A stretch of DNA of 64,000 nt from IMG/VR virus record IMGVR_UViG_3300031841_005656, one strand, 5' to 3'. The notes beneath the pieces are model-generated. The model saw nothing but the letters and a program-made list of their open reading frames with translations, ran no database searches and was not told where the DNA came from. Position numbers and translations under genes: made by a program. Shown here piece by piece: positions 12,042 through 48,692 of the stretch; position 1 is the stretch's first letter, and the number at the start of each line of letters is the position of its first letter. This DNA is from an uncultured virus (IMG/VR IMGVR_UViG_3300031841_005656). Lineage: Duplodnaviria > Heunggongvirae > Uroviricota > Caudoviricetes.

Positions 12042-12061
12042 GACTTTTTTTAAAAAAAATT

Positions 12062-12135
12062 TGGACGCGAGGGGCGGAATCGAACCGCCGATAAGAGTTT
12101 TGCAGACTCCCGCCTTACCACTTGGCTACCCCGCG
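12062..12135 (-). tRNA. tRNA-Cys (GCA) with encoded CCA
   Basis: CGCGGGG-TA-GCC-AAGTGGTAA-GGC-G-GGAGT-CTGCAAA-ACTCT-TATC-GGCGG-TTCGATT-CCGCC-CCTCGCG-T-CCA; U73 discriminator. Confidence 0.95.
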
Positions 12136-12141
12136 CGTACC

Positions 12142-12483
12142 TCAGTATCCTTCGATACTGAGGTTGCGGCCCATCGCCTCGAGCAGCCGCTTCCTAGTCA
12201 GGCTGCCGACGCTTTTGCCGTCGTTGATAGTCCAACGATTAGGACAGCCGAGCGAGAACCACATTTCCAGTTCGATGCTGGAGGGTTTGGAGTACGGCGA
12301 CCAGTCGAGATGGAACACGCGCTTGGTGGTGACAGCACAATGGATGTCGTGCCAGATCTTACTGACATCATCCTCGTGCTCGACCTCGGGGTCATAATAA
12401 AACTCATGACCGTCCTCGATTATCTGCAAACCTTCCGGTGTCATGTCGGTCTGCTTGAACTTATAGGTTTTCATTTCTCTCAT
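12142..12483 (-). CDS. hypothetical protein
   Basis: 113 aa; GTT-ATG-AGA start behind TTTACT-17-GATAAT. Confidence 0.75.
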   Translation of the reverse strand: MREMKTYKFKQTDMTPEGLQIIEDGHEFYYDPEVEHEDDVSKIWHDIHCAVTTKRVFHLDWSPYSKPSSIELEMWFSLGCPNRWTINDGKSVGSLTRKRLLEAMGRNLSIEGY

Positions 12484-12494
12484 AACAAAAAAGA

Positions 12495-12713
12495 TTATCG
12501 CACAAATTTTTCAACAAGTAAAGAAAATTTTTCCAATTCAGCCAATTTTTTTGGGCTTTTGGTGGGCTTGAATTCATTCAGCCAAAGCATCATAGCGGCA
12601 CGGCGCACGGCCACAGGAAAAGCCGGATCTGGCTTGCGCTTGGCGGGCGCGTCGCCCGTGGGAAAGGTGGACATATAGTCCGCCCAATCGATATCGGCAA
12701 ACGGGCTACCCAT
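12495..12713 (-). CDS. hypothetical protein (72 aa, MGSPFADIDW...)
   Basis: Start reassigned; GGAGG upstream; overlaps stop of the 12861 ORF. Confidence 0.6.
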   Translation of the reverse strand: MGSPFADIDWADYMSTFPTGDAPAKRKPDPAFPVAVRRAAMMLWLNEFKPTKSPKKLAELEKFSLLVEKFVR

Positions 12714-12861
12714 TGGACACCTCCTCATCCTGCGCGGCGATAGCTTCGTCGCGCCAGATGTCACACTGCGCCTCGTATTCAGCGCGAGCGTGGGGATCAT
12801 TGTGAAAAACCTCCTCAAGTGAAACTTGGGCCAACTCTGCGATCTGTTGATCTAACCTCAT
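12706..12861 (-). CDS. acidic peptide (51 aa, MRLDQQIAELAQ...; not in ORF track)
   Basis: TTGACA-16-TATTCT-9-ATG promoter. Confidence 0.7.
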   Translation of the reverse strand: MRLDQQIAELAQVSLEEVFHNDPHARAEYEAQCDIWRDEAIAAQDEEVSNG

Positions 12862-12944
12862 AACGGAATCAGAATACCACAAACTCAGAGAATGTCAACC
12901 CCTTAATACCAAAAAAAATAAAAAAACTTTTTTTATTTTTTTGC

Positions 12945-12991
12945 TTGACATCTAACGCTTCGCGGGGGCGCCGCCGACCGTTAGACGTCAA
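12945..12991 (+). repeat. 47-bp element copy 6
   Basis: TTGACATCTAACG-CTTC-GCGG-GGGCG-CCGC-CGAC-CGTTAGACGTCAA. Confidence 0.95.
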
Positions 12992-13003
12992 GACTTTTTT
13001 TAG

Positions 13004-13034
13004 AAAAAAAACACCCCGCCGAAGCGGGGTGTTT
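13004..13034 (-). terminator. intrinsic terminator
   Basis: A-run-CACCCCGC-CGAA-GCGGGGTG-TTT. Confidence 0.8.
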
Positions 13035-13046
13035 AGTGTTATGAGG

Positions 13047-13205
13047 TTATGATGGACAAGAAATTTTTTGCAGAGTTTTTGTGTCAGTCGATTCCATGAT
13101 TTTGACGAGGCGATTGGACAAGCCGCCAATCTGAATAATTTTTTTCAAGTAACAACGCAGCATTAGTTTTTCGTCGCTGTTCAGTTCGGGCAATGGTTTT
13201 TTCAT
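13047..13205 (-). CDS. hypothetical protein (52 aa, MKKPLPELNS...; not in ORF track)
   Basis: ATGA-coupled to the 13309 ORF. Confidence 0.55.
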   Translation of the reverse strand: MKKPLPELNSDEKLMLRCYLKKIIQIGGLSNRLVKIMESTDTKTLQKISCPS

Positions 13206-13309
13206 TTGAATATCTTTTTTAATTTGCGGTTACGATTTAAGCGTGCCTTGACTATATCAATTTCAATTTTTTTGTCAACTAAACTCCAGTTTATCTTAAT
13301 TGATCTCAT
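13202..13309 (-). CDS. basic peptide (35 aa, MRSIKINW...)
   Basis: GTTATGAGA start overlapping hydrolase stop. Confidence 0.5.
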   Translation of the reverse strand: MRSIKINWSLVDKKIEIDIVKARLNRNRKLKKIFK

Positions 13310-13785
13310 AACTTGTAGAATGCGTGTTGCCCAATTACTTTGACAGGCTTTTGGCCTTTTGCCCAATACGGTTTCTTTTTCATCCATGTTGCGTGGTAAT
13401 GATTAGCGAAGCCGATGAAATCACGCGACAGATGTTTGACATTTTTGGCCACGGTAATTGCATACTTGGCTTGCGGTACTTTCAACAGATGCTCAAGGTC
13501 TTTGACGGTTTTACCGTTCCAACAACTGAACTGCCATTTTTTAAGACAGACCTCCGATGGGGTTTGTTTTCTTTCAAATGCTCTCTGAGCGATGCAAGCA
13601 CCAACAGCATACATTCCCGCTTCCCCTTCCCCTCTGGCCTCCGCCAAAATGGTAATGGCGACAATTTTTTGCTCTCTAGTGAGTTGATGATTTTTGTGCG
13701 TGTTTCCATAAGCAGAGACGGTAACAATGGCCAAGCAGATCCAGTAAAAGATTCTAAAACTTTTGCTTAAAAGAATTTTTTTCAT
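13306..13785 (-). CDS. cell wall hydrolase, SleB/CwlJ (Hydrolase_2) family, with N-terminal signal/anchor
   Basis: TILAEARGEG..GM.AV, QFSCWN, ANHYHA...PYWA......IGQHAFY. Confidence 0.9.
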   Translation of the reverse strand: MKKILLSKSFRIFYWICLAIVTVSAYGNTHKNHQLTREQKIVAITILAEARGEGEAGMYAVGACIAQRAFERKQTPSEVCLKKWQFSCWNGKTVKDLEHLLKVPQAKYAITVAKNVKHLSRDFIGFANHYHATWMKKKPYWAKGQKPVKVIGQHAFYKL

Positions 13786-13796
13786 TTTATTGATTT

Positions 13797-14018
13797 TTAG
13801 TTTTCGACGGGGAACATACCTTCCAACCTATCCATGCGGAACCGCTTGTATTTGCCAGTCTCGGTGCAAGTGCCGCCGATGCCAGCGAACTTTTCGTTGT
13901 TTGAACGATTCTCGAAAGATTCGTCCAACTCAATCCGATAGCTGTGCAGGTCGTTGTTCTTGTTGATAACCCCGTTGTGGATTTCGGGCCGATAGAATAT
14001 GTTCATGATTTCTCTCAT
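13797..14018 (-). CDS. small WYL/SH3-like domain protein (73 aa)
   Basis: IFY...G.C.ETGKYKRFRMDRL ending; promoter TTGACT-16-TAAACT-10-ATG. Confidence 0.55.
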   Translation of the reverse strand: MREIMNIFYRPEIHNGVINKNNDLHSYRIELDESFENRSNNEKFAGIGGTCTETGKYKRFRMDRLEGMFPVEN

Positions 14019-14065
14019 AACAAAAATTAGTTTATCAGGTTTTTCGGTAAAGTCAACAATTATTT

Positions 14066-14305
14066 TTAGCCAAATTTGGGAAATCCTTGGTAGCGATAGA
14101 CTCCGAGCAGGTCGCCGTTGTTGCCGTGGGCAACTTGGCAACCGTCCTCTTCCAGCACCCACGGAAACCCATTCTTGTCGGCCTCTTCGGCCATCTCCAT
14201 TGCCGCGTTCATCGCAGAGTGATCCCAACCGGTCTTGTTGGAGAATTCTTCGCTGCGCACCCTATTGGTGTCTTCGTCCTTCCAGTATAACGTGTACGTC
14301 CTCAT
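14066..14305 (-). CDS. hypothetical protein (79 aa, MRTYTLYW...)
   Basis: Promoter TTGACT-17-TTTAAT-10-ATG. Confidence 0.7.
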   Translation of the reverse strand: MRTYTLYWKDEDTNRVRSEEFSNKTGWDHSAMNAAMEMAEEADKNGFPWVLEEDGCQVAHGNNGDLLGVYRYQGFPKFG

Positions 14306-14347
14306 AACTCCGTTTATTAAATCACAGTTTGCGCTCAAAGTCAACAA

Positions 14348-14509
14348 TTATTTTTTATTTTTTTGAGCTTCGGCATCGAGAAGCTTCCGCTTCTCGATGT
14401 TAAACTTACGAACTTTTAGCTGGTGGTCTTTGATCGGGTCAAAGGCCAGCCACTTGCCGAACATGATTTCCTTTTCCAGTTTTTGGATTTTGATGTCGAT
14501 TTCCCTCAT
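14348..14509 (-). CDS. basic peptide (53 aa, MREIDIKIQK...; not in ORF track)
   Basis: Promoter TTGCAA-16-TATACT-10-ATG. Confidence 0.65.
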   Translation of the reverse strand: MREIDIKIQKLEKEIMFGKWLAFDPIKDHQLKVRKFNIEKRKLLDAEAQKNKK

Positions 14510-14600
14510 AACGAAAAACAGTATATCACAGCTTCAGAAAATTGCAAGCACTTTTTTCACTTTTTTAAAAAAACTTTTTTAAATTTTTTGCATTTTAGGC

Positions 14601-14647
14601 TTGACATCTAACGTTTCGCGGCCGGCCCGCCGGCCGTTAGACGTCAA
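14601..14647 (+). repeat. 47-bp element copy 7
   Basis: TTGACATCTAACG-TTTC-GCGG-CCGGC-CCGC-CGGC-CGTTAGACGTCAA. Confidence 0.95.
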
Positions 14648-14648
14648 C

Positions 14649-14675
14649 AAAAAAAACGCACTTTGTGCGTTTTTT
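14649..14675. terminator. bidirectional intrinsic terminator
   Basis: A8-CGCAC-TTT-GTGCG-T6. Confidence 0.7.
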
Positions 14676-14883
14676 ATTCTAGCGCCTGACCAAATCGCAC
14701 AAGCATAGTTTTGGGCGTGCCATCATCGGGAGCTTTGACAAACTTATCCCATGACGGAGGATAATATACCGTTGTGACGCTGTTAGTATCGGCAAACGAT
14801 ATTTTACGATGCACAATTTCCTTCTCGGTAACCACGCAACCTGTTAAACAGATCGCACCAACTAAACAGATTATTTTTTTCAT
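14674..14883 (-). CDS. small putative lipoprotein
   Basis: MKKIICLVGAICLTGC lipobox. Confidence 0.6.
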   Translation of the reverse strand: MKKIICLVGAICLTGCVVTEKEIVHRKISFADTNSVTTVYYPPSWDKFVKAPDDGTPKTMLVRFGQALE

Positions 14884-14884
14884 T

Positions 14885-15349
14885 TTAACTCCAGCCGCGC
14901 ACTTCAATTATCAATTTTTTTATCTCGCTGACTATATTGTCGGGAATGACTTGAGTCAACCACTTTGTGCCGTACGTATAACCGCGATCAACATACAGAT
15001 CATTTTTTTTCAAAAATTCACATCGATCATCGTAATCTGTTGATGGACATTTTTTTAAAATTTCCGCTTGCTGTTGAGTGCCAGCTTGAAGATCATTTAG
15101 ATGATATTTTTTCCAGTATTTGTATATACGGCGAAAAAGATAGTTATCACCATTCAATCGATACATTTCATCGAGATTTTGCCCAAACGAATCATTTGAG
15201 ATTTCACCGGACGCGCTGAACGTATAAGCTGACTCAACGTTTTCAAGTGTGCGCCAATCGATGGAAGGACGGTCTCTCATTTCGAGACCGAAGTCCACCA
15301 CGCAACGCGATCCGTCGCTGCCGGTCATTGTTAATTTGGCCGACATCAT
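14885..15349 (-). CDS. conserved phage hypothetical protein
   Basis: FSASG....GQ.LDE...W..YHLND..AG...Q...Y.YG..WL pattern; start at ATGA overlap with the 15543 ORF. Confidence 0.7.
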   Translation of the reverse strand: MMSAKLTMTGSDGSRCVVDFGLEMRDRPSIDWRTLENVESAYTFSASGEISNDSFGQNLDEMYRLNGDNYLFRRIYKYWKKYHLNDLQAGTQQQAEILKKCPSTDYDDRCEFLKKNDLYVDRGYTYGTKWLTQVIPDNIVSEIKKLIIEVRGWS

Positions 15350-15543
15350 TTGGCACCTCCATTCTTTATGGTGGCAGAATGTATATTCGGCCAAACGACC
15401 TCGCCGCCGAAGGTCACCTCAGTATCCTCCCGCGCGGCCAACGTGATGGCCTTTTCAAGACCATCGTGAGAACGTGCGAAACCAGCAACATCACCAGAGT
15501 TGGCGATCCGAACCGTGTACATATTATCAAACATATCTCTCAT
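15346..15543 (-). CDS. hypothetical protein (65 aa, MRDMFDN...)
   Basis: Promoter TTGCTT-16-TATACT-10-ATG. Confidence 0.7.
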   Translation of the reverse strand: MRDMFDNMYTVRIANSGDVAGFARSHDGLEKAITLAAREDTEVTFGGEVVWPNIHSATIKNGGAK

Positions 15544-15584
15544 AACGAAAAAAAGTATATCAGACTCTCAGAAAAAAGCAAGCG

Positions 15585-15728
15585 TTAATTTGAATTTTTT
15601 TTCTTTTTTAAGCCGCGTTTGAACTGCTCCCATGTGGGGCGTTCGGCTTCGGGAATCATTTCCCATTCCTTTTTTTGCGCTTGGCGTATCCAGTTTGCAA
15701 ACTCAGCATTTTTAATCATATCTCTCAT
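15585..15728 (-). CDS. basic peptide (47 aa, MRDMIKN...)
   Basis: Promoter TTGCAA-16-TATACT-10-ATG. Confidence 0.65.
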   Translation of the reverse strand: MRDMIKNAEFANWIRQAQKKEWEMIPEAERPTWEQFKRGLKKKKNSN

Positions 15729-15810
15729 AACTGGAGACAGTATAGCACAGCCACAGAAAATTGCAACCCTTTTTTTAAAAAAAATAAAAAAACTTTTTTT
15801 ATTTTTCTTG

Positions 15811-15857
15811 TTGACATCTAACGTTTGGGCGCAAGGCCGCCGGCCGTTAGACGTCAA
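15811..15857 (+). repeat. 47-bp element copy 8
   Basis: TTGACATCTAACG-TTTG-GGCG-CAAGG-CCGC-CGGC-CGTTAGACGTCAA. Confidence 0.95.
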
Positions 15858-15878
15858 GCTTTTTCTTCACTTTTTTTC

Positions 15879-15910
15879 AAAAAAAACACCCCGCTTTCGC
15901 GGGGTGTTTT
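15879..15910 (-). terminator. intrinsic terminator
   Basis: A8-CACCCCGC-TTTC-GCGGGGTG-TTTT; near-identical to 13004-13034. Confidence 0.8.
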
Positions 15911-15921
15911 ACTGTTATGAG

Positions 15922-16089
15922 GTAGACAACGCACACACGGGTCCACAGATTATTGAGTCGCTGCCGCACCACCAGCAGTAAAACGGGCGCGAGCTGCCTA
16001 TAAAAACTCGCAGGGGTATTTAACTCCGCCGACTCAAAATTGTCGGGGTTAGCTTTACATCTGCCCCGCCAGATGCACATGGTGTCTAC
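15922..16089 (-). ncRNA. candidate ~170-nt multi-branch structured RNA
   Basis: Closing stem GTAGACA/TGTCTAC enclosing CATCTG/CAGATG, TTGAGTCG/CGACTCAA, GCGAGTT/AGCTCGC and CTGCTG/CGGCAG; G-U pairs favour the minus strand. Confidence 0.5.
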
Positions 16090-16090
16090 A

Positions 16091-16306
16091 CTAACTGACC
16101 GGCTCAAGGATACCGATTTGGTCGATGTTGAATCGACGAATGCCGCAGCTTTCGCCGTTCTGGAACTTGTAGCCGATAATGTGGTCGGCGTGACGCTCGG
16201 TGATGGCTACCGTGTATTCGTTGGTGCGGCCATCCTGCCGAGTGTAGGTGATGTGGTGGCGTGGTACGCTCTCTATTTCCTTTAGGATTTGTTCAGTTGT
16301 CATCAT
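16091..16306 (-). CDS. small WYL/SH3-like domain protein (71 aa; frame is also open from ATG 16495)
   Basis: ITYTRQDGRTNEYTV.......IIGY......IRRFNIDQI; own promoter TTGACT-17-TAAGCT with hairpin leader. Confidence 0.6.
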   Translation of the reverse strand: MMTTEQILKEIESVPRHHITYTRQDGRTNEYTVAITERHADHIIGYKFQNGESCGIRRFNIDQIGILEPVS

Positions 16307-16494
16307 AACTTTTTTTGTGTTTGGGTTCTTCCGAACCGCTGAGAAAAGCTTATTCCATATTGAGCGCAGAGTCAACCCTTTTGATAACTTTTTTTCAACT
16401 TTTTTTTCTGCGCGGGGCGGGTCGAATCGTTGATTAAATTCTCTTATCTTTTGCTCAATTGCCTTTAGGTCGGGCTTTACGTTTATTTGGTTCA

Positions 16495-16722
16495 TTATTT
16501 GAATTTTGTTGTGATGTGGTAGTTTCCACAGATTTTGCATTGGTAGATACGTGACTTGGTCTTGTAATACTTTTGCTGATTCTTAACATGCTTTTGTGCA
16601 TCCGACACTTTTTCAAATACTTTTTTGTCAAAGCATTGTATATAATATTTTTCTCTCAACTGCATATCCGGTTCTCCTTGGATAAAATCGTTAAAGACTT
16701 CGCTCTTCGTTCGCTTCTTCAT
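16495..16722 (-). CDS. small phage protein with YxCxxCGxYH Zn-binding motif
   Basis: C..KK.F....A...IYQCKICGNYHIT; TTGACA-17-TACAAT upstream. Confidence 0.65.
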   Translation of the reverse strand: MKKRTKSEVFNDFIQGEPDMQLREKYYIQCFDKKVFEKVSDAQKHVKNQQKYYKTKSRIYQCKICGNYHITTKFK

Positions 16723-16788
16723 GGCATTGTAGATGTTCGCATTTCGTTTGTCAAGTACGGGGTGCGCTTGCGCGCACCCCGTCAAGGA

Positions 16789-17088
16789 TTACATTGTGCC
16801 GTTGCTCGGCAGGTCTTTGCTGCCGTAGTTGTAGTTGCCCGCGTTGTACGGGTTGCGCATATGGCTACGGTCTACTTTTTTGCCGTAGATGTTGCGGTCT
16901 TTGTGGATGAACTTTTGGAAGCCCGCCGCGATAGCCTCCTTGATACCGCGCAGGTCTTCCGCGCTGATATTGGCCATTCCTTCGCAGCGTTCGGCCTCAT
17001 TGTTCAGCCGCTTGCTGAAATCTTTTTCGCCGAGGTTGCGTTGATGCGGCTCGAAGCCGCCCGTTTCGTTATTGTCTCTTGTTCTCAT
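16789..17088 (-). CDS. hypothetical protein (99 aa)
   Basis: GTT-ATG-AGA start behind TTGACT-17-AATAAT; followed by hairpin at about 16757-16782. Confidence 0.7.
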   Translation of the reverse strand: MRTRDNNETGGFEPHQRNLGEKDFSKRLNNEAERCEGMANISAEDLRGIKEAIAAGFQKFIHKDRNIYGKKVDRSHMRNPYNAGNYNYGSKDLPSNGTM

Positions 17089-17141
17089 AACCAGAAAAAT
17101 TATTGTCTATTCAGATGTTAAAGTCAACAGGAAATTTTTTT

Positions 17142-17408
17142 TTATTTGCTGAAGTAGCCGTGATCCTCAAAGCAGTTGACAATTTCAACGACGCGGTGAA
17201 TGTCACCAGCCAAAACTTTGTTGCCGTCGATATCTTTCTCCAACACCACTTGGTTGTGGTACTGGTCGATCATTTCCTGCTCGGTTGTGCCAAGCGGGAA
17301 AGTGCAGCCCTTGACACGGTTAACACGGGCCGAGAAGTGGTTGCCGGTGTAGGTTGGGTTCTTCTCCACTTTGAAGGTAACATTTAAAAATGGTTTCTTA
17401 TCTCTCAT
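17142..17408 (-). CDS. hypothetical protein (88 aa, MRDKKPF...)
   Basis: Promoter TTGACT-16-TATACT-10-ATG. Confidence 0.7.
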   Translation of the reverse strand: MRDKKPFLNVTFKVEKNPTYTGNHFSARVNRVKGCTFPLGTTEQEMIDQYHNQVVLEKDIDGNKVLAGDIHRVVEIVNCFEDHGYFSK

Positions 17409-17465
17409 AACGGGGATCAGTATATCAGAATTTTTTTGAAAGTCAACAAGTTTTTTCAACTTTTT

Positions 17466-36159: not shown

Positions 36160-37115
36160 TGGAAGTGGTGGAGTCCAAAGTTTTTACCTGTGCAGAATGC
36201 GGCAAAGAGTTTGCAAGTAGAGCTTCATTGCACAAACATTTTAAACAGCATGGTTTAAATTTAGCTTCTTACTATACCAAACACTTTCCAAGAAAAAACA
36301 AATTAACAGGTGACCCATTGCCCTTCAAAAGATATGAAGAATATTTTGAACGAGACTTTTCCACCAAGCAGCAATTATTCAAATGGTGCGAAGAGAATTC
36401 TTCAGAAGAAGTCAAAAAATACGCAATGTCACTTCTTGAAAAAAGACATAACAAGAAAAATAGAAAGTATGGCGCGTTTCATTTAGAGACTAAAAATTCT
36501 TTTTTGCCGCCTCTTTCCGTCTACAAAAAGATTTTTGGCAGTTATAATGCGGCTTGCGAAGTTTTAGGCTGCGAACCTTTGTTTGACAAAAACTTGCCTA
36601 AAAATTTTTTTACAGATAAGATTCCTGAAGATCTAAAAATCGCTATAGACACAAGGGAGCAAAAACCTTTGAGTTTTGATTTTTGCCAATCAGAAGTGCT
36701 GAAGTTAGATATAGGGGATTATACTACATTAGGCAAATATTACAATTACACTTTTGTAGATAGAAAATCTGGCAACGATTTGCAAGGGACTTTAAATAAA
36801 CATAACATAGAAAGATTTAGAAGAGAGATACAAAGAGCGCAAGAAATGGATTCCTATTTATTTATTGTGATAGAATCCAATGTAGAAAAGATGATTAAAG
36901 AAAATAAAATTTTTAATCGGCGTAGCAATGTAGATTTCACGCTTAGGCAGATTAAAGATTTATGTCATGATTTTCCTAGGTGTTGCCAATTTGTATTTGT
37001 TGATGACAGAGAAAGTGCTTCAAAATTTATCCCAAGAGTTTTAATGCACGGTAAAAATATTTGGCGTACTGACATGCAATATTTTTGGGACCAAAAAAAA
37101 CATGAGCTGGCATGA
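36159..37115 (+). CDS. C2H2 Zn finger plus ERCC4/XPF-type nuclease
   Basis: CAECGKEF...LHKH...H; IDTREQKP, L..GDY, V.RKS..DL.GTL...RF.RE+.R. Confidence 0.8.
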   Translation: MEVVESKVFTCAECGKEFASRASLHKHFKQHGLNLASYYTKHFPRKNKLTGDPLPFKRYEEYFERDFSTKQQLFKWCEENSSEEVKKYAMSLLEKRHNKKNRKYGAFHLETKNSFLPPLSVYKKIFGSYNAACEVLGCEPLFDKNLPKNFFTDKIPEDLKIAIDTREQKPLSFDFCQSEVLKLDIGDYTTLGKYYNYTFVDRKSGNDLQGTLNKHNIERFRREIQRAQEMDSYLFIVIESNVEKMIKENKIFNRRSNVDFTLRQIKDLCHDFPRCCQFVFVDDRESASKFIPRVLMHGKNIWRTDMQYFWDQKKHELA

Positions 37116-38967
37116 AGGAAATCAAGGCAAGCCTTCGCATCAATTAAGAGATAATGAAGAGCTTTTAAAAGTAGATGGCTTCTTGGAAGAAAAGGAAGCC
37201 AAGCTGGCTCTTTATGAATTTTTACGAAATAACATTACTTTTTCTGCGGACCTTATATTAGGAGTCAAGCTTTTTCCATTTCAGCATATGGCTATCAAGT
37301 CCATGTTTGAAAGAGATTATTTTATGGGCGTATGGAGCCGTGGGATGTCAAAGTCTTTTACAACTGGTATCTATGCAGCTCTTGATGCTGTACTAAATCA
37401 AGGGGTTGAAATTGGAATACTGTCAAAATCTTTCAGGCAGGCCAAAATGATTTTCAAAAAGATTGAAGATATAGCGGTCAAGCCAGAGGCAGGTTTTTTT
37501 AGACAATGTATAACTAAGACTTCAAAAAGTAATGATGAGTGGTTGATGGAAATTGGTTCAAGCAGAATAAGAGCGTTACCTTTGGGTGATGGTGAAAAAC
37601 TGCGTGGCTTTCGTTTTCATAGAATAATTATTGATGAGTTTCTTTTGATGCCAGAACGAATTTACAACGAAGTCATTGTTCCGTTTTTGTCTGTTGTAGA
37701 AAATCCAACTCAAAGAGACGACTTGTACAAATTAGAAAATAGGCTTATAGAGGAGGGTAAAATGACGGAAGATGAAAGGTATGTTTGGCCCAATAATAAA
37801 CTCATAGCTCTTTCTTCTGCGTCTTATAAATTTGAATATTTATATAAGCTCTATACTCAATTTGAAAATTTAATCGTAGCAGAAAAACAAAAAGACAAAG
37901 CTTCTCGTTGTATTATGCAATACAGTTATGATTGCGCTCCGAAGCAACTATATGATGAAAACTTAATTAACCAAGCAAAAGCAACGATGAGCCAATCTCA
38001 GTTTGAAAGAGAATTTGGGGCTATATTTACAGATGATAGTTCTGGTTATTTTAAAACTAGCAAGATGGCGCTGTGCACTATTCCAGATGGAGACTTGCCG
38101 TGCATTGAAGTTCAAGGCGAGCCAGATTCAGAATATATTTTAGCCTTTGACCCATCTTGGTCTCAAACGGAAAGTTCTGACGATTTCGCCATACAAATTT
38201 TGAAATTACATCCAGAACAACAAAAAACAACTCTCGTGCACAGTTATGCATTGTCGGGCACTTCACTCAAGCATCATATAAATTATTTTTTATTTTGTTT
38301 GCAAAACTTTAACGTTGTTGGAGTATGCGGTGACTATAACGGCGGCGTGCAATTTTTACAAGCTTGCAATGAAAGCGAAACTTTCAAAGAAAAAAATATA
38401 AAACTCCAAACGATAGACGTAGGGCTAGATAAACCTGAAGAATATCAAAATGATCTTAAAAAATACAAGAACGAATACAATTCTAAAGAGCATAAGTACG
38501 TCATTTTAAGAAAGCCAACAAGCAATTGGATTAGGCAGGCCAACGAATTGCTGCAGGCAAATTTCGACCATAGGCGTATATATTTTGCAAGTCGGGCCAC
38601 AGACGACTCATATACAAAACAAAAAAACAAAAGCATTCCTATACAAGATATAAAGTTTTTGCGTACCGCGGAAGAAGCGAAGCAAAGCGCCGGAGCTAAA
38701 ATGATTGATTTTATTGAGCACCAGTCAGATATGATAGATTTGACAAAAAATGAGTGCGCTTTAGTTCAGATTACTACAACTTCACAAGGCACTCAAACAT
38801 TTGATTTACCTTCAAATCTTAGAAGGCAAACTGGTCCAGACAAAGCAAGAAAAGACTCTTACTCAGCTTTAGTTTTAGCAAATTGGATGGCCAAAGTCCA
38901 CTTTGACTCTCAGCATGTGCAACAAGAAGATGTTATAGAAACATTCGTTCCTGAGTTTATAATGTAA
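37102..38967 (+). CDS. terL: terminase large subunit
   Basis: L.PFQ, SRGMSKS Walker A, IIIDE Walker B, SSA motif, F.REF.A.F, RNase H-like LAFDPS...DD, KDSYSAL. Confidence 0.9.
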   Translation: MSWHEGNQGKPSHQLRDNEELLKVDGFLEEKEAKLALYEFLRNNITFSADLILGVKLFPFQHMAIKSMFERDYFMGVWSRGMSKSFTTGIYAALDAVLNQGVEIGILSKSFRQAKMIFKKIEDIAVKPEAGFFRQCITKTSKSNDEWLMEIGSSRIRALPLGDGEKLRGFRFHRIIIDEFLLMPERIYNEVIVPFLSVVENPTQRDDLYKLENRLIEEGKMTEDERYVWPNNKLIALSSASYKFEYLYKLYTQFENLIVAEKQKDKASRCIMQYSYDCAPKQLYDENLINQAKATMSQSQFEREFGAIFTDDSSGYFKTSKMALCTIPDGDLPCIEVQGEPDSEYILAFDPSWSQTESSDDFAIQILKLHPEQQKTTLVHSYALSGTSLKHHINYFLFCLQNFNVVGVCGDYNGGVQFLQACNESETFKEKNIKLQTIDVGLDKPEEYQNDLKKYKNEYNSKEHKYVILRKPTSNWIRQANELLQANFDHRRIYFASRATDDSYTKQKNKSIPIQDIKFLRTAEEAKQSAGAKMIDFIEHQSDMIDLTKNECALVQITTTSQGTQTFDLPSNLRRQTGPDKARKDSYSALVLANWMAKVHFDSQHVQQEDVIETFVPEFIM

Positions 38968-41072: not shown

Positions 41073-42683
41073 ATGCCAAAGAATATGAAAAATACATCAT
41101 GTAAGTATACCACAACTTATGACTGTGAGGTGTACGCAACTACCGATTTAGAAAATGATTTAAATATCAGCCGAGCTTCTTTGGAAAACTTAAAGCCGCT
41201 TATCCCTAAATCAATAGACCTAGAAAGGAACATCGATTTGGTCGGAGCCGCATTTAATGCCGCAGTAGTCAACAAGTTTAATAAAAATGGAGACGGAATT
41301 AATTCTGAAACCGCAGTGGACTTGATTGACTATTTTGTAAACAAACCCACCAACATCGAACACAAAAAGCAAAAAGTGGTTGGCCACATTGTAAATGCCG
41401 GTTTTACAGACCTTAACAACGAAAAAATTATTGGAAATGCTGCGGCGTTATCTAACAACGGGCCATATTATATTTCCCTTGCAGCCGTAATTTACAAAAC
41501 AGTAAACAAAGATTTTGCGGATATATTGCTAAAGTCTAGCGATGAAGAAAGCGACTACTTTAAAAAAATCTCCGCCAGTTGGGAGTTAGGATTTAATGAC
41601 TTCGTTTTGGCGGTTGGATCTAAAGATTTAAACGATGCCGAGATTATATCAAACCCTAATCATATTGAAGAAATGAAGCATTATTTAAAAGCTTTTGATG
41701 GAAATGGGGCTTTAAATGATGGAACTCCTATTTATCGTTTAGTTGTTGGAGATGTTTATCCTTTAGGAATTGGATTCACTACAAATCCAGCTGCAGATGT
41801 TAGCGGTTTGATAGTCGAAAAGAACATCAACCTAGACGTCAAAGATAAAAGAGACGCATCAGTAGAAAAAAATAATTTTAAAAATAATTTTAAAAATAAT
41901 ATTTTAAAAATTTCACAAAGTGAAATAACTAATGTAAAAAATACTAATACTATGGATATTACAGAGTTCAAAACCGAGTTCGAGAAGGTCCTCGATTCGA
42001 AGTTAGCGGACAATGCTGAATTCACTCAGGAAGCCGTAGCTACTATCACTTCTCACGTGGTCGAAAAGATTCGCGAGAAGGATCAGGAGTATAAGGCTGA
42101 AAGAGAGGCTATTGAGGCTGAAAAGGCTCAAGCCGAGAAGGATGCAGTTGAAGCTAAAGCTTCCATGGAAGATCTTCAGAAAAAGTTGGAAGAAGCAAAT
42201 GAGAAAATTGATTCTTTAGAGTCTTCCATCAACGCTGCTGCTGCAGAACAATTATTCAATAGTCGCATGGAAGCTATCGATGAGCTTTACGACCTTTCCG
42301 ATCAAGACCGCACGGTTTTGGCGAATGAGGTTAAAAGTTTAGAAGCTTCTGACGAGGCTTTTGAATCGTATCAGGGCAAATTGTCTTCTCTTCTTCATCA
42401 TAAGAGCAAAGCTTTTAAATTGGAGCAGGAAAAACAGTTTGAGGCAAAGGTTCAGGAAGAGCTTGAGAAACGCTTGGCTTCCGCTTCTACAGAAGAAGCG
42501 GTTGCTAACGTGACTGAAGAGGCTGTTGCTGAAGCCGATGAAAGTGTTGAAGAAGTAGTTGAAAATGTTGAAGTCCCGCACTCCAGCATGGCCAACAACA
42601 ATGAGGCTTCGTCAACTGAAGAGTCTTTATCTGACCAGTTCAAAAAGGCTTTTAACACCGAAAATATTTCAATAACCTATTAA
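41073..42683 (+). CDS. prohead protease fused to acidic coiled-coil scaffold
   Basis: N.NGD, F..KP.N.EH....VG.I, SASWE, G.G.T.NPA; long E/A-rich C-terminus. Confidence 0.7.
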   Translation: MPKNMKNTSCKYTTTYDCEVYATTDLENDLNISRASLENLKPLIPKSIDLERNIDLVGAAFNAAVVNKFNKNGDGINSETAVDLIDYFVNKPTNIEHKKQKVVGHIVNAGFTDLNNEKIIGNAAALSNNGPYYISLAAVIYKTVNKDFADILLKSSDEESDYFKKISASWELGFNDFVLAVGSKDLNDAEIISNPNHIEEMKHYLKAFDGNGALNDGTPIYRLVVGDVYPLGIGFTTNPAADVSGLIVEKNINLDVKDKRDASVEKNNFKNNFKNNILKISQSEITNVKNTNTMDITEFKTEFEKVLDSKLADNAEFTQEAVATITSHVVEKIREKDQEYKAEREAIEAEKAQAEKDAVEAKASMEDLQKKLEEANEKIDSLESSINAAAAEQLFNSRMEAIDELYDLSDQDRTVLANEVKSLEASDEAFESYQGKLSSLLHHKSKAFKLEQEKQFEAKVQEELEKRLASASTEEAVANVTEEAVAEADESVEEVVENVEVPHSSMANNNEASSTEESLSDQFKKAFNTENISITY

Positions 42684-42696: not shown

Positions 42697-43359
42697 ATGG
42701 CACTTAGATTATACCCATTTAGGCAATATAACGATTCGGATGTCGTCAACTTGTTTGCAAACAACGTAGTAGACGACAATCCCACGACCAATGGTAACGG
42801 TAGTGCAGGTGTGATGGTTAAGGTATTGAGCGGTAATCTGAACCAAGACACTTTCGATTTAATTGGAAGTGACTACTTGGGTAAAACTGATTATCCGTTC
42901 TTGGGAGCTGATAAGTACCCAGTCGTACCTTTACGTGTCGTAGCTGCTACAACTGGTGCTCCGGTATTAGGCGTCACTCTTAATCAGACGATTAAGAACG
43001 ACGAGAATGGAGAAAAGCTCCTTTATAACCCCGTCAAAAGAGACGAGCTTCAAGCAGTTCTCAGCGGTCAGGCTTGCCCGGTCGCAACACGAGGCCTGTT
43101 TACGTTCGACGAAACTGCATACGAGAAAGACTCTAACTGGGTTCCCGGTAATGTCGCAGCTATCTCGGCTAATGCTGGCAAATTGACAGGTGTTACCCGC
43201 GAAGGTCTCGCTGATCTTGTTGGCACTCTGGTTGGTCACATTTTGGCTACCGGTAACCGCCAATCTCAGAATGGTCAGTCCGATCAGTTCGCTGGTACAG
43301 GTACTGCGCAGTACGCGTTAGTAGCGTTAGAATGCTCTAATTCTATTGATGTTGCTTAA
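42697..43359 (+). CDS. head decoration/cement protein (putative)
   Basis: Between scaffold and capsid genes; highly biased codons. Confidence 0.6.
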   Translation: MALRLYPFRQYNDSDVVNLFANNVVDDNPTTNGNGSAGVMVKVLSGNLNQDTFDLIGSDYLGKTDYPFLGADKYPVVPLRVVAATTGAPVLGVTLNQTIKNDENGEKLLYNPVKRDELQAVLSGQACPVATRGLFTFDETAYEKDSNWVPGNVAAISANAGKLTGVTREGLADLVGTLVGHILATGNRQSQNGQSDQFAGTGTAQYALVALECSNSIDVA

Positions 43360-43391
43360 TCATTTAACTAAAGAAAGGATATTTAATTAAA

Positions 43392-44549
43392 ATGAAAATT
43401 ACATTAAAAAGAACTGACGAGCAAGTGGAATTGGTAAAAGCAATGGGCTCTCGTAACAGAGAGACTGCTTTCGCAGCTCAGGTTGCATTAGCAGAGTTTA
43501 TTGGCCCTGTTTTAGCCGAAGTCATTAACAACGCTCCTACTCTCAGTAACTTATTTACTGCTTTAGAGTACAACGCAGACGACAATCCTTCGATTCCGTT
43601 GGATTTGTATTATGATGTTTTCGACGAAGATTATATTCGAGTCTACAGCCAGTCTGTAGCAGGCGGTCTTCCGACAAACTACGTTCAGCCTACAGCTTCC
43701 GAGCTGAAGTTCGCTACTTACAACTTGGACAGCGCAGTTTCTTTCGATAGAAAGTATGCTACGCGCTCACGCCTTGATGTGATTGGTAAGACTTTCACTC
43801 GCGTGGCTCAGGAAGTTCTCCTCAAGCAGGAAAGAACTTCTTCTAACTTGGTTATGACGGCTTTGGCTAACGCTACGAATGGTAAAGCAGCTTTCACTGC
43901 TTCTAATCGTAACGTTTTCAGAACCGCTCAGGCAAACCGCTTCTTATTGGATGACTTAAACAAGTTGTTCACTAAGATGAAGAGAGTTAACGCTTCTTTC
44001 TCTGGTGGCACTCCCGCTGGCGCTCGTAAAGCCTTGACTGATCTTTTGGTTTCACCTGAAGTTGTTGAGCAGATTCGCTCCATGGCTTACAACCCGGTTA
44101 GCACTTTAGGTCCTGACGGAACCGCTGCTACTCACGGTGACGGCGCTGGTATCGCTGCTACCGACACTGTTAGAAACTCTGTGTTCGGCCAGAGTGGTTT
44201 AACCGAATTCTTCGGTGTTGCCATTATGGAAGTTCTGGAGATGGGTGTTGGTAAGAGATTCAACGACGTGTTCGACACGGTCGCTGGAACTACCGATTAT
44301 CTTGATCACGGTTCTACTTCCGCTTCTAGCGCATTCAATGGTGCTTCAGAGGAAATTATCGTTGGTTTGGATCGCAGCAGAGATGCAATGATTCGCGCTA
44401 TCGCGGTTGACTCCGAAACTGGCTCTCAGTTCAACTTAGTCGCTGACGATCAGTTCTCTTCTAGACAGCAGAGAATTGGTTACTACGGTGCCTTGGAAGA
44501 GGGACGCATGGTGTTGGATAACCGAGCCTTAGTGGGCTTAATCATGTAA
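43392..44549 (+). CDS. major capsid protein
   Basis: 385 aa, strongest codon bias, position after protease/decoration genes, strong terminator downstream. Confidence 0.8.
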   Translation: MKITLKRTDEQVELVKAMGSRNRETAFAAQVALAEFIGPVLAEVINNAPTLSNLFTALEYNADDNPSIPLDLYYDVFDEDYIRVYSQSVAGGLPTNYVQPTASELKFATYNLDSAVSFDRKYATRSRLDVIGKTFTRVAQEVLLKQERTSSNLVMTALANATNGKAAFTASNRNVFRTAQANRFLLDDLNKLFTKMKRVNASFSGGTPAGARKALTDLLVSPEVVEQIRSMAYNPVSTLGPDGTAATHGDGAGIAATDTVRNSVFGQSGLTEFFGVAIMEVLEMGVGKRFNDVFDTVAGTTDYLDHGSTSASSAFNGASEEIIVGLDRSRDAMIRAIAVDSETGSQFNLVADDQFSSRQQRIGYYGALEEGRMVLDNRALVGLIM

Positions 44550-44560
44550 TTCAGGTCTCA

Positions 44561-44580
44561 TCGCGGCCGGCCCGCCGGCC
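44561..44580 (+). repeat. isolated 20-bp core of the 47-bp element
   Basis: TCGCGGCCGGCCCGCCGGCC, identical to 9495-9514 and 14616-14635. Confidence 0.9.
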
Positions 44581-44585
44581 TCCTT

Positions 44586-44617
44586 AACTCCGCCTCGAAA
44601 GAGGCGGAGTTTTTTTT
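44586..44617 (+). terminator. intrinsic terminator after capsid gene
   Basis: ACTCCGCCTC-GAAA-GAGGCGGAGT-T7. Confidence 0.9.
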
Positions 44618-44650
44618 GGAAAAATACGTTTTTAGTTGTAATATATTAAC

Positions 44651-45049
44651 ATGGCAGCGAAGAAAAGAAAAACAGCAAAGAAAAAAGCCAATCTTGAAGA
44701 TTTGCAAAATTTTACAACTGGCAGATTAGAAGATGATGCTATCGAAAAAGTAAAGCGATTAGAGGAGGTTCTTGGGATCAAACAGGTAAACCCATTTGGT
44801 ACTAACGACCCAAACATATTTGAAGATAAATTAAAAGACTCTAATTTGAGTGATTTGCAAAATTTAGCCATGAAAATTGGACTCTTTCCAGATGGCAGCC
44901 TACCAAGGCTAAAAGAAAAGTTGAGATCAGAGTTTAAAAGAATTACAAAAGGATCTCGCACTGTTAGTATGGAAGATCCGCTTCCTATTCACGACCCTAA
45001 TCATCCAAACCACGAAAAAGCAAAAAAATTAATGAGCGAAGGTTTTTGA
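44651..45049 (+). CDS. hypothetical protein (head module)
   Basis: 132 aa. Confidence 0.65.
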   Translation: MAAKKRKTAKKKANLEDLQNFTTGRLEDDAIEKVKRLEEVLGIKQVNPFGTNDPNIFEDKLKDSNLSDLQNLAMKIGLFPDGSLPRLKEKLRSEFKRITKGSRTVSMEDPLPIHDPNHPNHEKAKKLMSEGF

Positions 45050-45070
45050 TTTTAAGTGTAAATATATTAT

Positions 45071-45625
45071 ATGCCAGACAGGTCAAAAACACCTTATTTA
45101 GTTAGTACTATAGCCACAGGGATCTTTAATGATGAGTTTGATTCCGACACTGGCTTTGCGACAATAGCATCTATTTCAGGTTGGTTAGCTAATAATGTAG
45201 GCCTTCTAAATACCACTCTCTATACGGCATTTTCTGGATCAGGATCTGTAACTGAATACCCAGATGATACGGTAGTGCAACCTTCGGGCAGTTTCCGTTT
45301 TGAAGAGGCTGATATATACAAGCAAGTATATCTAACAAACTATTATACCAAAAAAGCTCGGGCTGTCTTAAAAGGCATTGACAGCTCTGTAGATTTCATA
45401 TCTTTGAGAGAGGGCGATTCTGTAATCACCAGAACAAACAAAAATGAAATCGCTAAGACTTACAGAGGCTTCGCTAAGGACGCTCAGGAGCGTCTAGACG
45501 ACCTTGTAGCAAAATATAATATCTACGCAGCGGAGCCTATCCAAGTTGCTGGTACAGACGCTTCTACGAACGCTAGCGGTGATATTTATGCGGCTTATGA
45601 TTATAGAGGAAGGGTCGGTTACTGA
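45071..45625 (+). CDS. putative head-tail adaptor/connector
   Basis: Position; S+.EGD..I...N adaptor-like motif; AAGTGTA 10 nt upstream. Confidence 0.55.
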   Translation: MPDRSKTPYLVSTIATGIFNDEFDSDTGFATIASISGWLANNVGLLNTTLYTAFSGSGSVTEYPDDTVVQPSGSFRFEEADIYKQVYLTNYYTKKARAVLKGIDSSVDFISLREGDSVITRTNKNEIAKTYRGFAKDAQERLDDLVAKYNIYAAEPIQVAGTDASTNASGDIYAAYDYRGRVGY

Positions 45626-47154
45626 CCACCGTCTCCTTTGTAAGCTGCATCTAAAGTTTTCTTAGTTCCCAACGGATAATAATTGATTGTCGGGAATCTG
45701 AAATAACTACCTTCCATAAATAAACCGTTGTCGGTATCATTAGAGCCGCCTACTTGCGTACTAAAAGTCATATCAACTGTTTCGTTGTCTCCAATTGCGC
45801 TGGTAAAGCTTTCGCTGTCTAACCTAGCGCCTTTGACTTTAAATACTAATGCTGTATCGCCCGCAGTTCCATCTAAGGCGTTTGGGGTACGCAATGTCAA
45901 AGTAAAGTCATGTTTTTGCGTAGAGGCTAAATTTTCAAAAAGATTATTTTTGTTAAATTCTGAAAGAACAGCAGAAAGTGACACATCTACATTAAGAGGC
46001 AAATCAATAACTCTGCTATAACCAAAAGTATTACCAAGTCTTTGCAAGATAGTTCTGCTCATTGGTACACTAATGTCCATGCTTTGAAGATGAGCATTTC
46101 CGTCTCCATTCATATCAGTAAAACCAATATAATCTCCAGAATTACCCATTGAAAACAATATATCTCCGGGTCTTAATGCGGCAACATCTGCGTTACCAGT
46201 GCTATAAGTTGGCACTGCGTATCTAGCAAAACGAGGTATACTAGCCCAAGAAGAGCCCCCGAAATTGGCAGTGTCAGATAATTGTATACCTGTTGTGCCA
46301 TTCGTTTGATCTACAGCGGGAATAGAAGGAAAATTTAAACCATTTCCAGATGTCAACGGGCCTGTGCTGTTAGTTAGATGAGCCGTTGAGTTACCGGAAG
46401 CGTTATTATCTGTTTTAATATTAAATGCTTCAACAGTCACAGATGCGGTTGGCACAGCGCCGACAGAAGCCGAAACGCTATAATCGCTAATAAATCCGTT
46501 GCCTATGCTAATTACATCAAAATTTGTAGAGTCCGAAACATATGAAGTGATAGCTTCGCCTTCAACATCTTTACCTTCTTTGCCCACCAAAATAAAATAA
46601 TTATTTCCAATTGTATCGTCTATCAAACCGGACAAGGCGCTATAACCAGACAATGCTAAATCGCCTGTCCAGTAATCTGCACTTGAGGGGCGAAAACCTC
46701 CGTCTCCATTACTAGTGGGCACATTAAATCCCATTTTTCTTTCATTTTCTCCGTCGGTCAAATAGTAATCAAAACTTAGATTGACCGTAGGGGATTCCAT
46801 TACAATTGAATCTATTCTAGCTAACCTACCAAATTCATTAATATCTTGTCTATTAATATTAAAATCAAAGTTTATAGTTTGAACGCGATTGATTGGCTCT
46901 ATCAATGATCTGTAAATTGATCCGCTAGGCCCAAGGTAGGAAGTACTATTTCCTGTAGCTGGGTCATTGACACCGCTCCATCTTAAAGAGCCGCTTTGAT
47001 AAGCTGAGTCTTGGGACAGGTTTGCGTTATAATCCCATTTGCCCGGTCCACTAGCTTCATCAACACTACCTTGACCAGACTGCAAATGATACCCTGTCGA
47101 AGCTGGTGAGATGTACAGGGCTTGACTTTGATAAATTACTCTATTGCGTGCCAC
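45619..47154 (-). CDS. major tail tube protein paralogue B (putative)
   Basis: Collinear paralogue of 47235-48692 (MARNRVIYQSQAL, RQD.NEFG.LARID, VPMSRTILQRLG); GTG start 9 nt after AAGTGTA. Confidence 0.65.
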   Translation of the reverse strand: MARNRVIYQSQALYISPASTGYHLQSGQGSVDEASGPGKWDYNANLSQDSAYQSGSLRWSGVNDPATGNSTSYLGPSGSIYRSLIEPINRVQTINFDFNINRQDINEFGRLARIDSIVMESPTVNLSFDYYLTDGENERKMGFNVPTSNGDGGFRPSSADYWTGDLALSGYSALSGLIDDTIGNNYFILVGKEGKDVEGEAITSYVSDSTNFDVISIGNGFISDYSVSASVGAVPTASVTVEAFNIKTDNNASGNSTAHLTNSTGPLTSGNGLNFPSIPAVDQTNGTTGIQLSDTANFGGSSWASIPRFARYAVPTYSTGNADVAALRPGDILFSMGNSGDYIGFTDMNGDGNAHLQSMDISVPMSRTILQRLGNTFGYSRVIDLPLNVDVSLSAVLSEFNKNNLFENLASTQKHDFTLTLRTPNALDGTAGDTALVFKVKGARLDSESFTSAIGDNETVDMTFSTQVGGSNDTDNGLFMEGSYFRFPTINYYPLGTKKTLDAAYKGDGGQ

Positions 47155-47234: not shown

Positions 47235-48692
47235 TTAAGCGCCCGGTACAAGAACCTCGTTGGCAAGACCGCCCTTTTGAGACTTTTGCGCACCCAAGTT
47301 CCAATATGGAATGCTAGTCCATCGAGCATAAGAACCCTTCATGAAGATTCCGTTTTCTTGGTCGTTAGCACCACCAACTTGGGTAGAGAACGTAACATCT
47401 ACAGTCTCGTTATCTCCGATAGCGTTACTGTAACTTTCTCCCTCAAGCCTCGCACCTTTAACATCAATGATTAAGGCATCCGCCCCTGAAGCACCTGTGC
47501 CAGCAGAGCGGCGCATAGTTAAACGGAAGTTGTGCTTATCAGTGCTAGCCAATTTTTCGAAAAGATTGTTTTGCCTTAACTCGGAAAGGATAGCTGACAC
47601 ACTAACATCGATATTTAGTGGAAGATCGATAACTCGAGCATAACCAAAGGTATTTCCGAGTCTTTGCAGAATGGTACGACTCATTGGCACCGATACAGTG
47701 AAGCTTTGAACGTGAGCTTTGCCGTTTCCGCTTAATACTGCGAAACCATCCGTATTAAATGAACCATCTTGGTTTGGATCAAGGAACTCAAGCAGAAGAT
47801 CTCCCGGACGCAATGCCGTGATTGTATTATCTGCGATATCACTACCTGCGACAAAGTCACCAGTTGTTTGCAAAGCGCCACCACGGAATTCATAGTTAAC
47901 TTCAACTTGTTGACCGTCAGTATCATTAACGCCCGGAATCCTGTTTCCAGTTCCTTCGGTTGAAAGCTGCCCAGATATATAATTATCAGCACGAATATTG
48001 AATGCTTCAACTGTTACACTAGCAGTCGGAAGAGCTCCGACAGAAGCATCAATTGAATAATCGCTGATAAAGCCATTGCCAATAGAAATTACATCAAAAT
48101 CTGCACTGCCACTTGTAACAGTATCACCTTGAACGTCTTTACCTTCTTTAGAAGTAACAATGAAATAGTTATTTCCTTGAGTATCTTCAATTAAACCAGA
48201 AAGTGCAGAATAACCAGAAATAGCACCATCTCCGGTCCATGCATATGTATTTTCATCGGTTCGACCCGGCAAAAATCCAGTGCTTCCAGACATATTTGTT
48301 GGAATATTAAAGCCCATCTTTCTTTCATTACCGCCGTCGGTCATATAATAATTAAAATCTAAACCAACGGTAGGCGACTCCATAACGATAGAATCGATAC
48401 GAGCTAATTTGCCAAACTCATTCACATCTTGACGATTAATCGTGAAGTTAAAGTTTGCAGATTGAACTCGATGAAGAGGTTCAATTAATGTTCTGTTTAA
48501 CACAGGCAAGGCCAATCCGTTAGCAGCATCTACCGCTCCGTCCGGAAAAGATCTTCCTGTAACTCCAGTCCAGTTTGTATTACCTGCAGCATCTACGGAA
48601 TTTGATGTATTCCCTGTTTGCATATGGTAACCAGTGGATGTGGGCGCGATAAATAGCGCCTGACTTTGATAAATTACTCTGTTTCTAGCCAT
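47235..48692 (-). CDS. major tail tube protein paralogue A (putative)
   Basis: Beta-rich; RVQSANF.F.INRQDVNEFG tail-tube-like pattern; own terminator. Confidence 0.7.
   Translation of the reverse strand: MARNRVIYQSQALFIAPTSTGYHMQTGNTSNSVDAAGNTNWTGVTGRSFPDGAVDAANGLALPVLNRTLIEPLHRVQSANFNFTINRQDVNEFGKLARIDSIVMESPTVGLDFNYYMTDGGNERKMGFNIPTNMSGSTGFLPGRTDENTYAWTGDGAISGYSALSGLIEDTQGNNYFIVTSKEGKDVQGDTVTSGSADFDVISIGNGFISDYSIDASVGALPTASVTVEAFNIRADNYISGQLSTEGTGNRIPGVNDTDGQQVEVNYEFRGGALQTTGDFVAGSDIADNTITALRPGDLLLEFLDPNQDGSFNTDGFAVLSGNGKAHVQSFTVSVPMSRTILQRLGNTFGYARVIDLPLNIDVSVSAILSELRQNNLFEKLASTDKHNFRLTMRRSAGTGASGADALIIDVKGARLEGESYSNAIGDNETVDVTFSTQVGGANDQENGIFMKGSYARWTSIPYWNLGAQKSQKGGLANEVLVPGA

Follow-up and report, generated by a model that had tools for sequence, protein, structure and literature searches.

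A 20-nt GC-rich sequence that forms the centre of hairpin elements in a gene array of an uncultured marine phage appears to have been copied about 30 kb away, into an unrelated hairpin in the 3′ untranslated region (UTR) of a major-capsid-like gene. Close relatives of the phage lack it at this place. We consider this core probably to be a young templated insertion from the GC interior of an array element, which would have replaced one post-stop hairpin with a stronger one. On this reading, the DNA of an uncultured marine phage lineage would preserve the direct footprint of a non-reciprocal transfer of a short patch. The absence of the core from close relatives points to a by-product of recombination and not to a conserved signal, and by comparison of the loci the capsid-site core is not a conserved regulatory or recombination site.

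The capsid-like gene and the core downstream of it

The window (the whole stretch of DNA analyzed, 64,000 nt) is a tailed-phage genome, in which a large terminase is encoded at 37102-38967, along with PhoH and a tape-measure-like protein of 2,387 aa; a weak Sigma70_r2 match points to a possible sigma factor. The terminase matches a T4-type model with its N-terminal domain alone. Downstream of the terminase gene, the head-gene block contains the capsid-like gene, and neither the 385-aa product of this gene nor the block had a significant match in Pfam or PHROGs. In the ESM Atlas, the protein was placed near Phage_capsid_4 clusters with a score of 0.97. Folding the single sequence gave a pLDDT of 35, and folding with a 32-row alignment gave 53; with this latter model, which is still poor, Foldseek returned weak matches (best E, 0.041), nearly all of them to capsids of the HK97 fold or encapsulins. 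Uricase matches found with phmmer against the PDB sequences (E about 0.005) were judged spurious, and a nucleotide search of positions 43000 to 46000 against a phage collection gave no match. We regard the major capsid protein as the probable product of this 385-aa ORF. The features of the site are as follows.

43392-44549 (+): major-capsid-like ORF (P0001, 385 aa), stop codon TAA at 44547-44549
44551-44555 (+): what is left of the ancestral post-stop hairpin TCAGG-N6-CCTGA, namely its 5′ arm, TCAGG; from the alignment to L005 and L007
44561-44580 (+): 20-nt GC core, a net +18-nt replacement relative to close relatives
44565-44580 (+): predicted RNA hairpin, GGCCGG, loop CCCG, CCGGCC, fold −12.6 kcal/mol
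44586-44617 (+): intrinsic terminator of the capsid-like gene, 11-bp stem at 44586-44611, GAAA loop, T8

The core, TCGCGGCCGGCCCGCCGGCC, lies on the plus strand 3′ of the stop codon and 5′ of the terminator, which agrees with an earlier note on this DNA; the capsid identity assumed there has moderate support. Exact matches to the 20-mer were found in the window at 9495-9514, 14616-14635, and 44561-44580, all on the plus strand, with a further site at 8449-8468 that has one mismatch, and none were found in dinucleotide-preserving shuffles (0/100). The copy at 44.5 kb is identical to the interior of two array elements, 9480-9526 and 14601-14647 (copies 3 and 7), in the same orientation and lacks the TTGAC...GTCAA arms, so that both of these observations of the earlier note were confirmed. 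The same is true of its description of the genome as AT-rich, the GC content being 0.31 to 0.51 per kb and highest in the array region.

A G/C-cluster scan of the window found 44561-44580 to be the sole arm-less cluster of its type, and among the exact repeats of at least 15 nt, the core was the only GC-rich one joining the array to a distant place. Avoidance of restriction sites was dropped as a candidate explanation, as the G/C palindromes GGCC, CCGG, GCGC, and CGCG are present at near-expected counts in the window (observed/expected, 0.86 to 0.98). In a search of the window with Rfam 15, a tRNA-Cys was the sole match at or above the gathering score, and nothing was found at the core site; two sub-threshold sRNA matches at 44450-44700 both rested on the terminator.

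Two other short sequences were observed in this part of the genome. The stretch following the terminator (44618-44653), TTTTAGTTGTAATATATTA(A/C)CATGG, ends at the start codon (44651) of the gene after the capsid gene and is kept in relatives (L005 to L053) to about 84% capsid identity. It has no visible Shine-Dalgarno sequence and may be a late promoter or a leaderless start. Farther downstream, two neighboring genes on the minus strand, 45619-47154 and 47235-48692, share an exact 20-nt direct repeat close to their 5′ ends (47123-47142 and 48661-48680) and may be paralogues.

Presence and absence of the core among relatives

Among 296 IMG/VR relatives of the capsid-like protein, 80 loci were kept, and the DNA after the stop codon could be read in 75 of them (L026, L033, L055, L058, and L062 were dropped, as they end within the gene). 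The core was missing in 74 of the 75, the exception being L006, which belongs to the near-identical record G001. A G/C-cluster scan of the 80 loci (502,199 nt) gave 32 clusters, with the core in L006 alone; the remaining clusters were, by eye, terminator stems or coding DNA. Four close relatives, L005, L007, L008, and L009, encode a 100% identical capsid protein and have 96 to 98% DNA identity over 6.6 to 7.2 kb, and they have no core. Three metagenome contigs of the same lineage (L133, L135, and L136) were likewise without it; a fourth match from that scan, L134, was unrelated to the lineage and was set aside. As records very near the window may be missing, these counts may carry a bias and are not usable as allele frequencies.

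The window and L005/L007 differ by three indels only: the core site, the length of the T-run at the terminator (by one T), and a tandem unit of 12 nt at 41868. The last of these, AAAAATAATTTT (41868-41879), lies inside an ORF (41073-42683) as an in-frame length polymorphism and is found in the window but not in L005/L007. Over approximately 35 kb aligned to another close core-less relative, G003, there were five indels of at least 6 nt, of which the core site was the largest and the sole one matching a distant locus.

The array and the capsid gene are present on one contig in three relatives, G007, G010, and G011, whose capsid proteins are 91%, 84%, and 82% identical to that of the window, respectively. 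The core was found after the stop codon in none of them (0/3). The earlier note had proposed that the GC core has its own function and had named its absence from array-bearing relatives as what would speak against this; with array-carrying relatives lacking the core after the capsid gene, that main inference fails, and a function of the core at the capsid site is unsupported across the 75 loci. Apart from one chance match, there were no other arm-less copies in G003, G007, G010, or G011; that match, an extra CCGCCGGCC in G011 (27789), lies within an apparent P-loop-like coding motif. Similarly, the exact 18-mer core was found in IMG/VR outside G001 at nine loci only, which we took as chance occurrences, as they are 66 to 77% GC and coding-looking by eye.

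The core allele is real: in two studies, three samples gave Logan contigs (X1, X2, and X8) that cross 44561-44580 with no differences there, although X1 and X2 are possible sources of the window DNA themselves. X8 differs from the window by an additional TT in the T-run alone, which makes it a distinct variant or assembly, and the IMG/VR record G001 also carries the core. An assembly or sequencing artefact, which the earlier note had allowed for, is therefore ruled out for all practical purposes, even though repeats may break the assemblies of this phage group near the array. The G003 contig, for example, breaks off at window position 16405 before reaching the array, and the contigs behind L133 and L136, judged from their lengths and match positions, would likewise end before it. 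The arrays of the core-less relatives with 96 to 98% identity are unassembled, and the repeated elements may break assemblies in a way that hides them.

The array elements and the origin of the capsid-site copy

The array holds eight elements in the window.

7403-7449 (+): array element copy 1, left arm degenerate
8434-8480 (+): copy 2, core 1 nt off the 20-mer
9480-9526 (+): copy 3, arms and 23-nt interior, candidate donor, core at 9495-9514
11451-11497 (+): copy 4, left arm degenerate
11995-12041 (+): copy 5, adjoining tRNA-Cys
12945-12991 (+): copy 6, between a terminator at 13009-13034 (−) and a promoter-like site at 12898-12871 (−)
14601-14647 (+): copy 7, candidate donor, core at 14616-14635
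15811-15857 (+): copy 8

Together with those of four other phage records (four in G007, one in G009, three in G010, and six in G011), 22 armed elements were compared. The interior is exactly 23 nt long in all 22, lying between TAAC (TAAT in window copy 4) and GTTA, and the arms are paired in 81.8% of cells, versus 12 to 43% when the partner is slid by one to three columns. At pair 8-40, 18 elements have C-G, and the other four, all from G007, have G-C. Arm identity is 10.0 to 11.5 of 12 within a genome and 8.6 to 9.7 of 12 when the window is compared with G007, for orthologous and non-orthologous elements alike; the inner arms read TCTAAC/GTTAGA in the window, CGTAAC/GTTACR in G007, and mostly TCTAAC/GTTAGG in G010 and G011. 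Interior identity, on the other hand, is 19.0 of 23 for orthologues (n = 3, a small sample), 15.5 of 23 for non-orthologues (n = 29), and 15.9 of 23 for window paralogues (n = 28). On these identities, the interiors are inherited locus by locus and the arms are genome-specific, so that the arms look like the part that is recognized or homogenized genome-wide. This pattern suggests either coevolution with a sequence-specific factor or homogenization restricted to the arms. As the arms are likely the recognized part, an arm-less core is unlikely to keep the function of the element. Within the interiors, different copies pair in different registers by eye, as expected of a G/C-only sequence.

On the minus strand, promoter-like sites (consensus matches only) are located 45 to 60 nt beyond copies 5 to 8, at 11950-11923, 12898-12871, 14547-14520, and 15766-15739, with A/T tracts between these copies and the sites. 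At least copies 6, 7, and 8 are placed past the terminator of the previous gene and before the A/T tract and sigma-70-like promoter. The gene order of the array differs among relatives: G007 has window segments in rearranged order, and G009 passes almost directly from a GP88-like gene to window position ~17.7 kb.

Several other observations were made in and around the array. The region 8001-17000 has 42 to 51% G+C per kb, versus about 31 to 39% in most of the first 42 kb, and its genes include those for GP88-like, DUF932, and cell-wall-hydrolase proteins; its GC content and gene content are compatible with acquired genes. The window has 18 occurrences of GTTATGAG, where 1.55 would be expected, and 16 of the 18 are in the array region (8117-17411). 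Of these 16, 13 have the minus-strand orientation, several coinciding with the ATG of a listed array ORF, and the three on the plus strand lie just past the terminators by copies 2, 6, and 8, heading ORFs of 2 to 13 codons. Inside the array, at 12062-12135 (−), is a tRNA-Cys (GCA) gene, about 20 nt from copy 5. Upstream of the array, 6129-7073 encodes an AAA+ ATPase with a RuvB-C-like winged helix by Pfam, which is clamp-loader-like by PHROGs, and approximately seven AT-rich repeats spaced by 15 nt (7218-7367) lie between this gene and copy 1; judging from this layout, 6129-7367 could be a replication origin with its initiator. A scan of a genome collection found one element on L141, a 2.1-kb contig in a Flavobacteriaceae metagenome bin; its left arm and 23-nt GC interior are present, and its right arm is truncated. 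L141 is probably a phage fragment and gives a weak lead to the host, too slight for assigning one. Sigma-70-like promoters of the TTGACA/TATAAT type, as predicted in the array, would be unusual for Bacteroidota.

The junction at the capsid site is exact in the alignments to L005 and L007. The relatives read CATCCTGA followed by TAAC, and the window reads CATC-GCGGCCGGCCCGCCGGCC-TCCT followed by TAAC, a net gain of 18 nt. At this site, seven core-less contigs of the same lineage carry the small hairpin TCAGG-N6-CCTGA, of which the insertion kept the 5′ arm (44551-44555) and replaced the 3′ arm. A T>C change and a loss of 2 nt (GA) lie within 10 nt of the insert, and the junction is also readable as an 18-nt insert with a TC...TC duplication at its flanks. 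Related clades have hairpin variants in which the pairing is kept (TCAG/CTGA, TCGGTA/TACCGA, and TCTG/CAGA), and farther relatives have no consistent post-stop hairpin. An intrinsic terminator ends nearly all of the 43 distinct 3′ UTRs folded, and that of the window is intact. The predicted energy of the core hairpin is −12.6 kcal/mol versus −6.4 kcal/mol for the ancestral hairpin, and the fold of the terminator is the same with both. The new hairpin, with six G-C pairs and a CCCG loop, is positioned 5 nt upstream of the terminator and is followed by TCCTTAAC instead of a T-run; it thus falls outside the definition of an intrinsic terminator, the real one being the next hairpin with T8.

The templated insertion that we favor would have had the GC interior of copy 3 or 7 as its donor, these being the sole exact 20-nt matches in the genome. 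A short patch would have been copied into the capsid-like 3′ UTR, overwriting the 3′ arm of the ancestral hairpin, by a replication template switch or by break repair primed by 2 nt of microhomology (TC); of this process, we see the product, and the mechanism is inferred. It would have been a single event, akin to the short-patch, non-reciprocal transfer that may lie behind the identity of copies 3 and 7. These two copies share an exact 35 nt between unrelated flanks, and the interior of the copy 7 orthologue in G007 differs at 3 of 23 positions, which together argue for a short-patch transfer in the window lineage. That orthologue also differs from the 20-mer at two positions, and the capsid copy is thus younger than the split from G007. 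The new hairpin most likely just substitutes for the lost one, with an effect between neutral and mildly protective of the 3′ end. As one event is known, the mechanism is not generalizable. The two alleles form a natural pair, a weak ancestral hairpin versus a strong GC hairpin upstream of the same terminator, in which capsid mRNA stability is testable. Among the possibilities listed in the earlier note was a recombination scar, which comes near the reading given here; the standalone function that the note attached to the site does not hold.

A functional cis-site, at which a protein or RNA partner of the array interiors also acts on the capsid 3′ UTR and for which the insertion was selected as a means of coupling the capsid transcript to that partner, is unlikely in our assessment, although several observations suit it. 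The interior 3′ half, CCGCCGGCC, is highly conserved, being present in most array elements of the five records (14/22 by eye from the alignment), the interior length never varies, and a factor binding this half is possible on that basis. Furthermore, GGCCGGCC is confined in the window to the three 20-mer sites (3/3), and the occurrence of the allele in at least three samples, from two studies, is compatible with positive selection. However, the distribution of the core among the 75 loci and the three array-bearing relatives is at odds with a selected site, the genome-specific and likely recognized arms are missing here while the interiors follow the locus, and the core fold is no stabler than same-composition shuffles (z, −1.3). 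Pairing between the core in the plus-strand capsid mRNA and minus-strand read-through transcripts of copies 3 and 7, a late-early link that the earlier note had raised, is very unlikely. The complementarity between the capsid transcript and minus-strand array transcripts through the elements would be perfect over 20 nt, but elements past an upstream minus-strand terminator, as at least copies 6, 7, and 8 are, should be little transcribed, the capsid site is not conserved among relatives, and the core would be sequestered in its own stable predicted hairpin. The RNA contig X15 spans only 44294-44536 and ends 5′ of the UTR, so that no RNA contig covers the UTR. The core gives no evidence of a new late-early regulatory link.

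We give a slim chance to the core being a miniature mobile GC-rich palindrome that is moved in trans into hairpin loops, with the array elements as older insertions, because the TC...TC flank and the neighboring changes can be read at the junction. Such a palindrome in an AT-rich genome, inserted where a hairpin already had its loop and 3′ arm and with small changes beside it, recalls the yeast GC clusters, for which 2- to 3-nt flanking repeats and putative co-conversion tracts are described (PMC4478555). By this analogy, the duplication can be read as fitting a transposition-like step, and the nearby T>C change and GA loss could be co-conversion marks of an active insertion process. The core would then be a self-sufficient hairpin unit actively copied into loops, a phage counterpart of the mitochondrial clusters, which we find similarly improbable, and the capsid-site copy would be a freshly seeded element beside a core structural gene. 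Against this, the window has one arm-less copy, with no further site in the 502 kb of capsid loci from the 80 relatives or in the ~35 kb that was aligned to G003; a search of IMG/VR for "empty" arms separated by 0 to 18 nt gave 0 matches, and the 2-nt repeat is not significant. Neither a Y1 transposase (PF01797, Y1/RAYT) nor a tyrosine recombinase (PF00589) was found in five partial records (0/5 for each; G001, G003, G007, G010, and G011, 29 to 43% complete), and PF00589 was detected in 14 of 14 control genomes. Among the ORFs of the window that were scanned (50 with Pfam and 72 with PHROGs), neither enzyme turned up, the genome being incomplete.

These searches bear equally on an integron-like attI partner for the cassette array, another suggestion of the earlier note, which is hardly credible. 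The core-site consensus of integron attC is RYYYAAC / GTTRRRY. The inner arms of the window, ATCTAAC ... GTTAGAT, fit it, and the gene order of the array varies among relatives, but the arms of G007, ACGTAAC ... GTTACAT, depart from it, the cassettes have promoter-like sites and terminators of their own, the capsid copy has no arms, and no integrase was found; nor is the capsid site conserved.

Comparison with known systems

As a short, imperfectly palindromic sequence placed between a stop codon and a terminator, the core resembles the bacterial REP/BIME elements, some of which stabilize mRNA 3′ ends and whose transposase is the Y1 protein RAYT. It differs from them in not being dispersed (one arm-less copy in 64 kb, none in relatives) and in having, by eye, no REP-type conserved 5′ tetranucleotide, and no Y1 transposase was detected. 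The likeness to integrons is limited to inner arms near the attC consensus and to a cassette-like array. In place of promoterless cassettes with a common promoter, individual promoter-like sites and terminators flank the array genes; moreover, the arms of relatives differ, no integrase was found, and the capsid copy is arm-less.

With regard to the inferred event, templated short insertions reported for MMBIR/MMEJ in yeast and human cells (PMC8421209 and PMC11724301) are similar in the scale of the insert (5 to 34 nt), its identity with a sequence elsewhere, the minimal homology at the junction, and the small deletion. Those cases come from yeast and human cells, and phage enzymes and a lesion are hypothetical here. 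The mobile GC clusters of yeast mitochondria, with tens of dispersed copies and many polymorphic sites as described by Wu and Hao (2015, PMC4478555), are comparable as GC-rich hairpins in an AT-rich genome that vary in presence and absence, with a 2-nt flank repeat and nearby changes. Here, in contrast, we found one arm-less copy at one polymorphic site, a TC...TC repeat too short to count, and no empty arms, and the possible sources are embedded in larger palindromes.

The array elements themselves resemble in layout the promoter-early stem-loop (PeSL) cassettes of T4-type phages (Arbiol et al. 2010, PMC2839356; Comeau et al. 2014, PMC4122927). They are intergenic stem-loops in multiple copies, G/C-rich at the centre and accompanied by an A/T tract and, by consensus matches, a sigma-70-like promoter, a combination absent from the capsid-site core; the genes around them are small, early, and for the most part unknown, and belong to a variable region where gene order changes. 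Unlike the PeSL phages, this phage is not recognizably T4-type, given its capsid-like protein without a Pfam or PHROG match, and the array stem-loop, instead of serving as the terminator, stands beside a distinct one as a separate palindrome of 47 nt whose interior is fixed at 23 nt and whose ends are TTGAC/GTCAA. The capsid-site copy, without promoter or arms, lies in the core structural module, where PeSLs are not described. In the PeSL system, recombination between copies yields mini-circles. The transfer proposed here supports the view of such stem-loops as recombinogenic "linkers" and may extend it past the T4-type phages.
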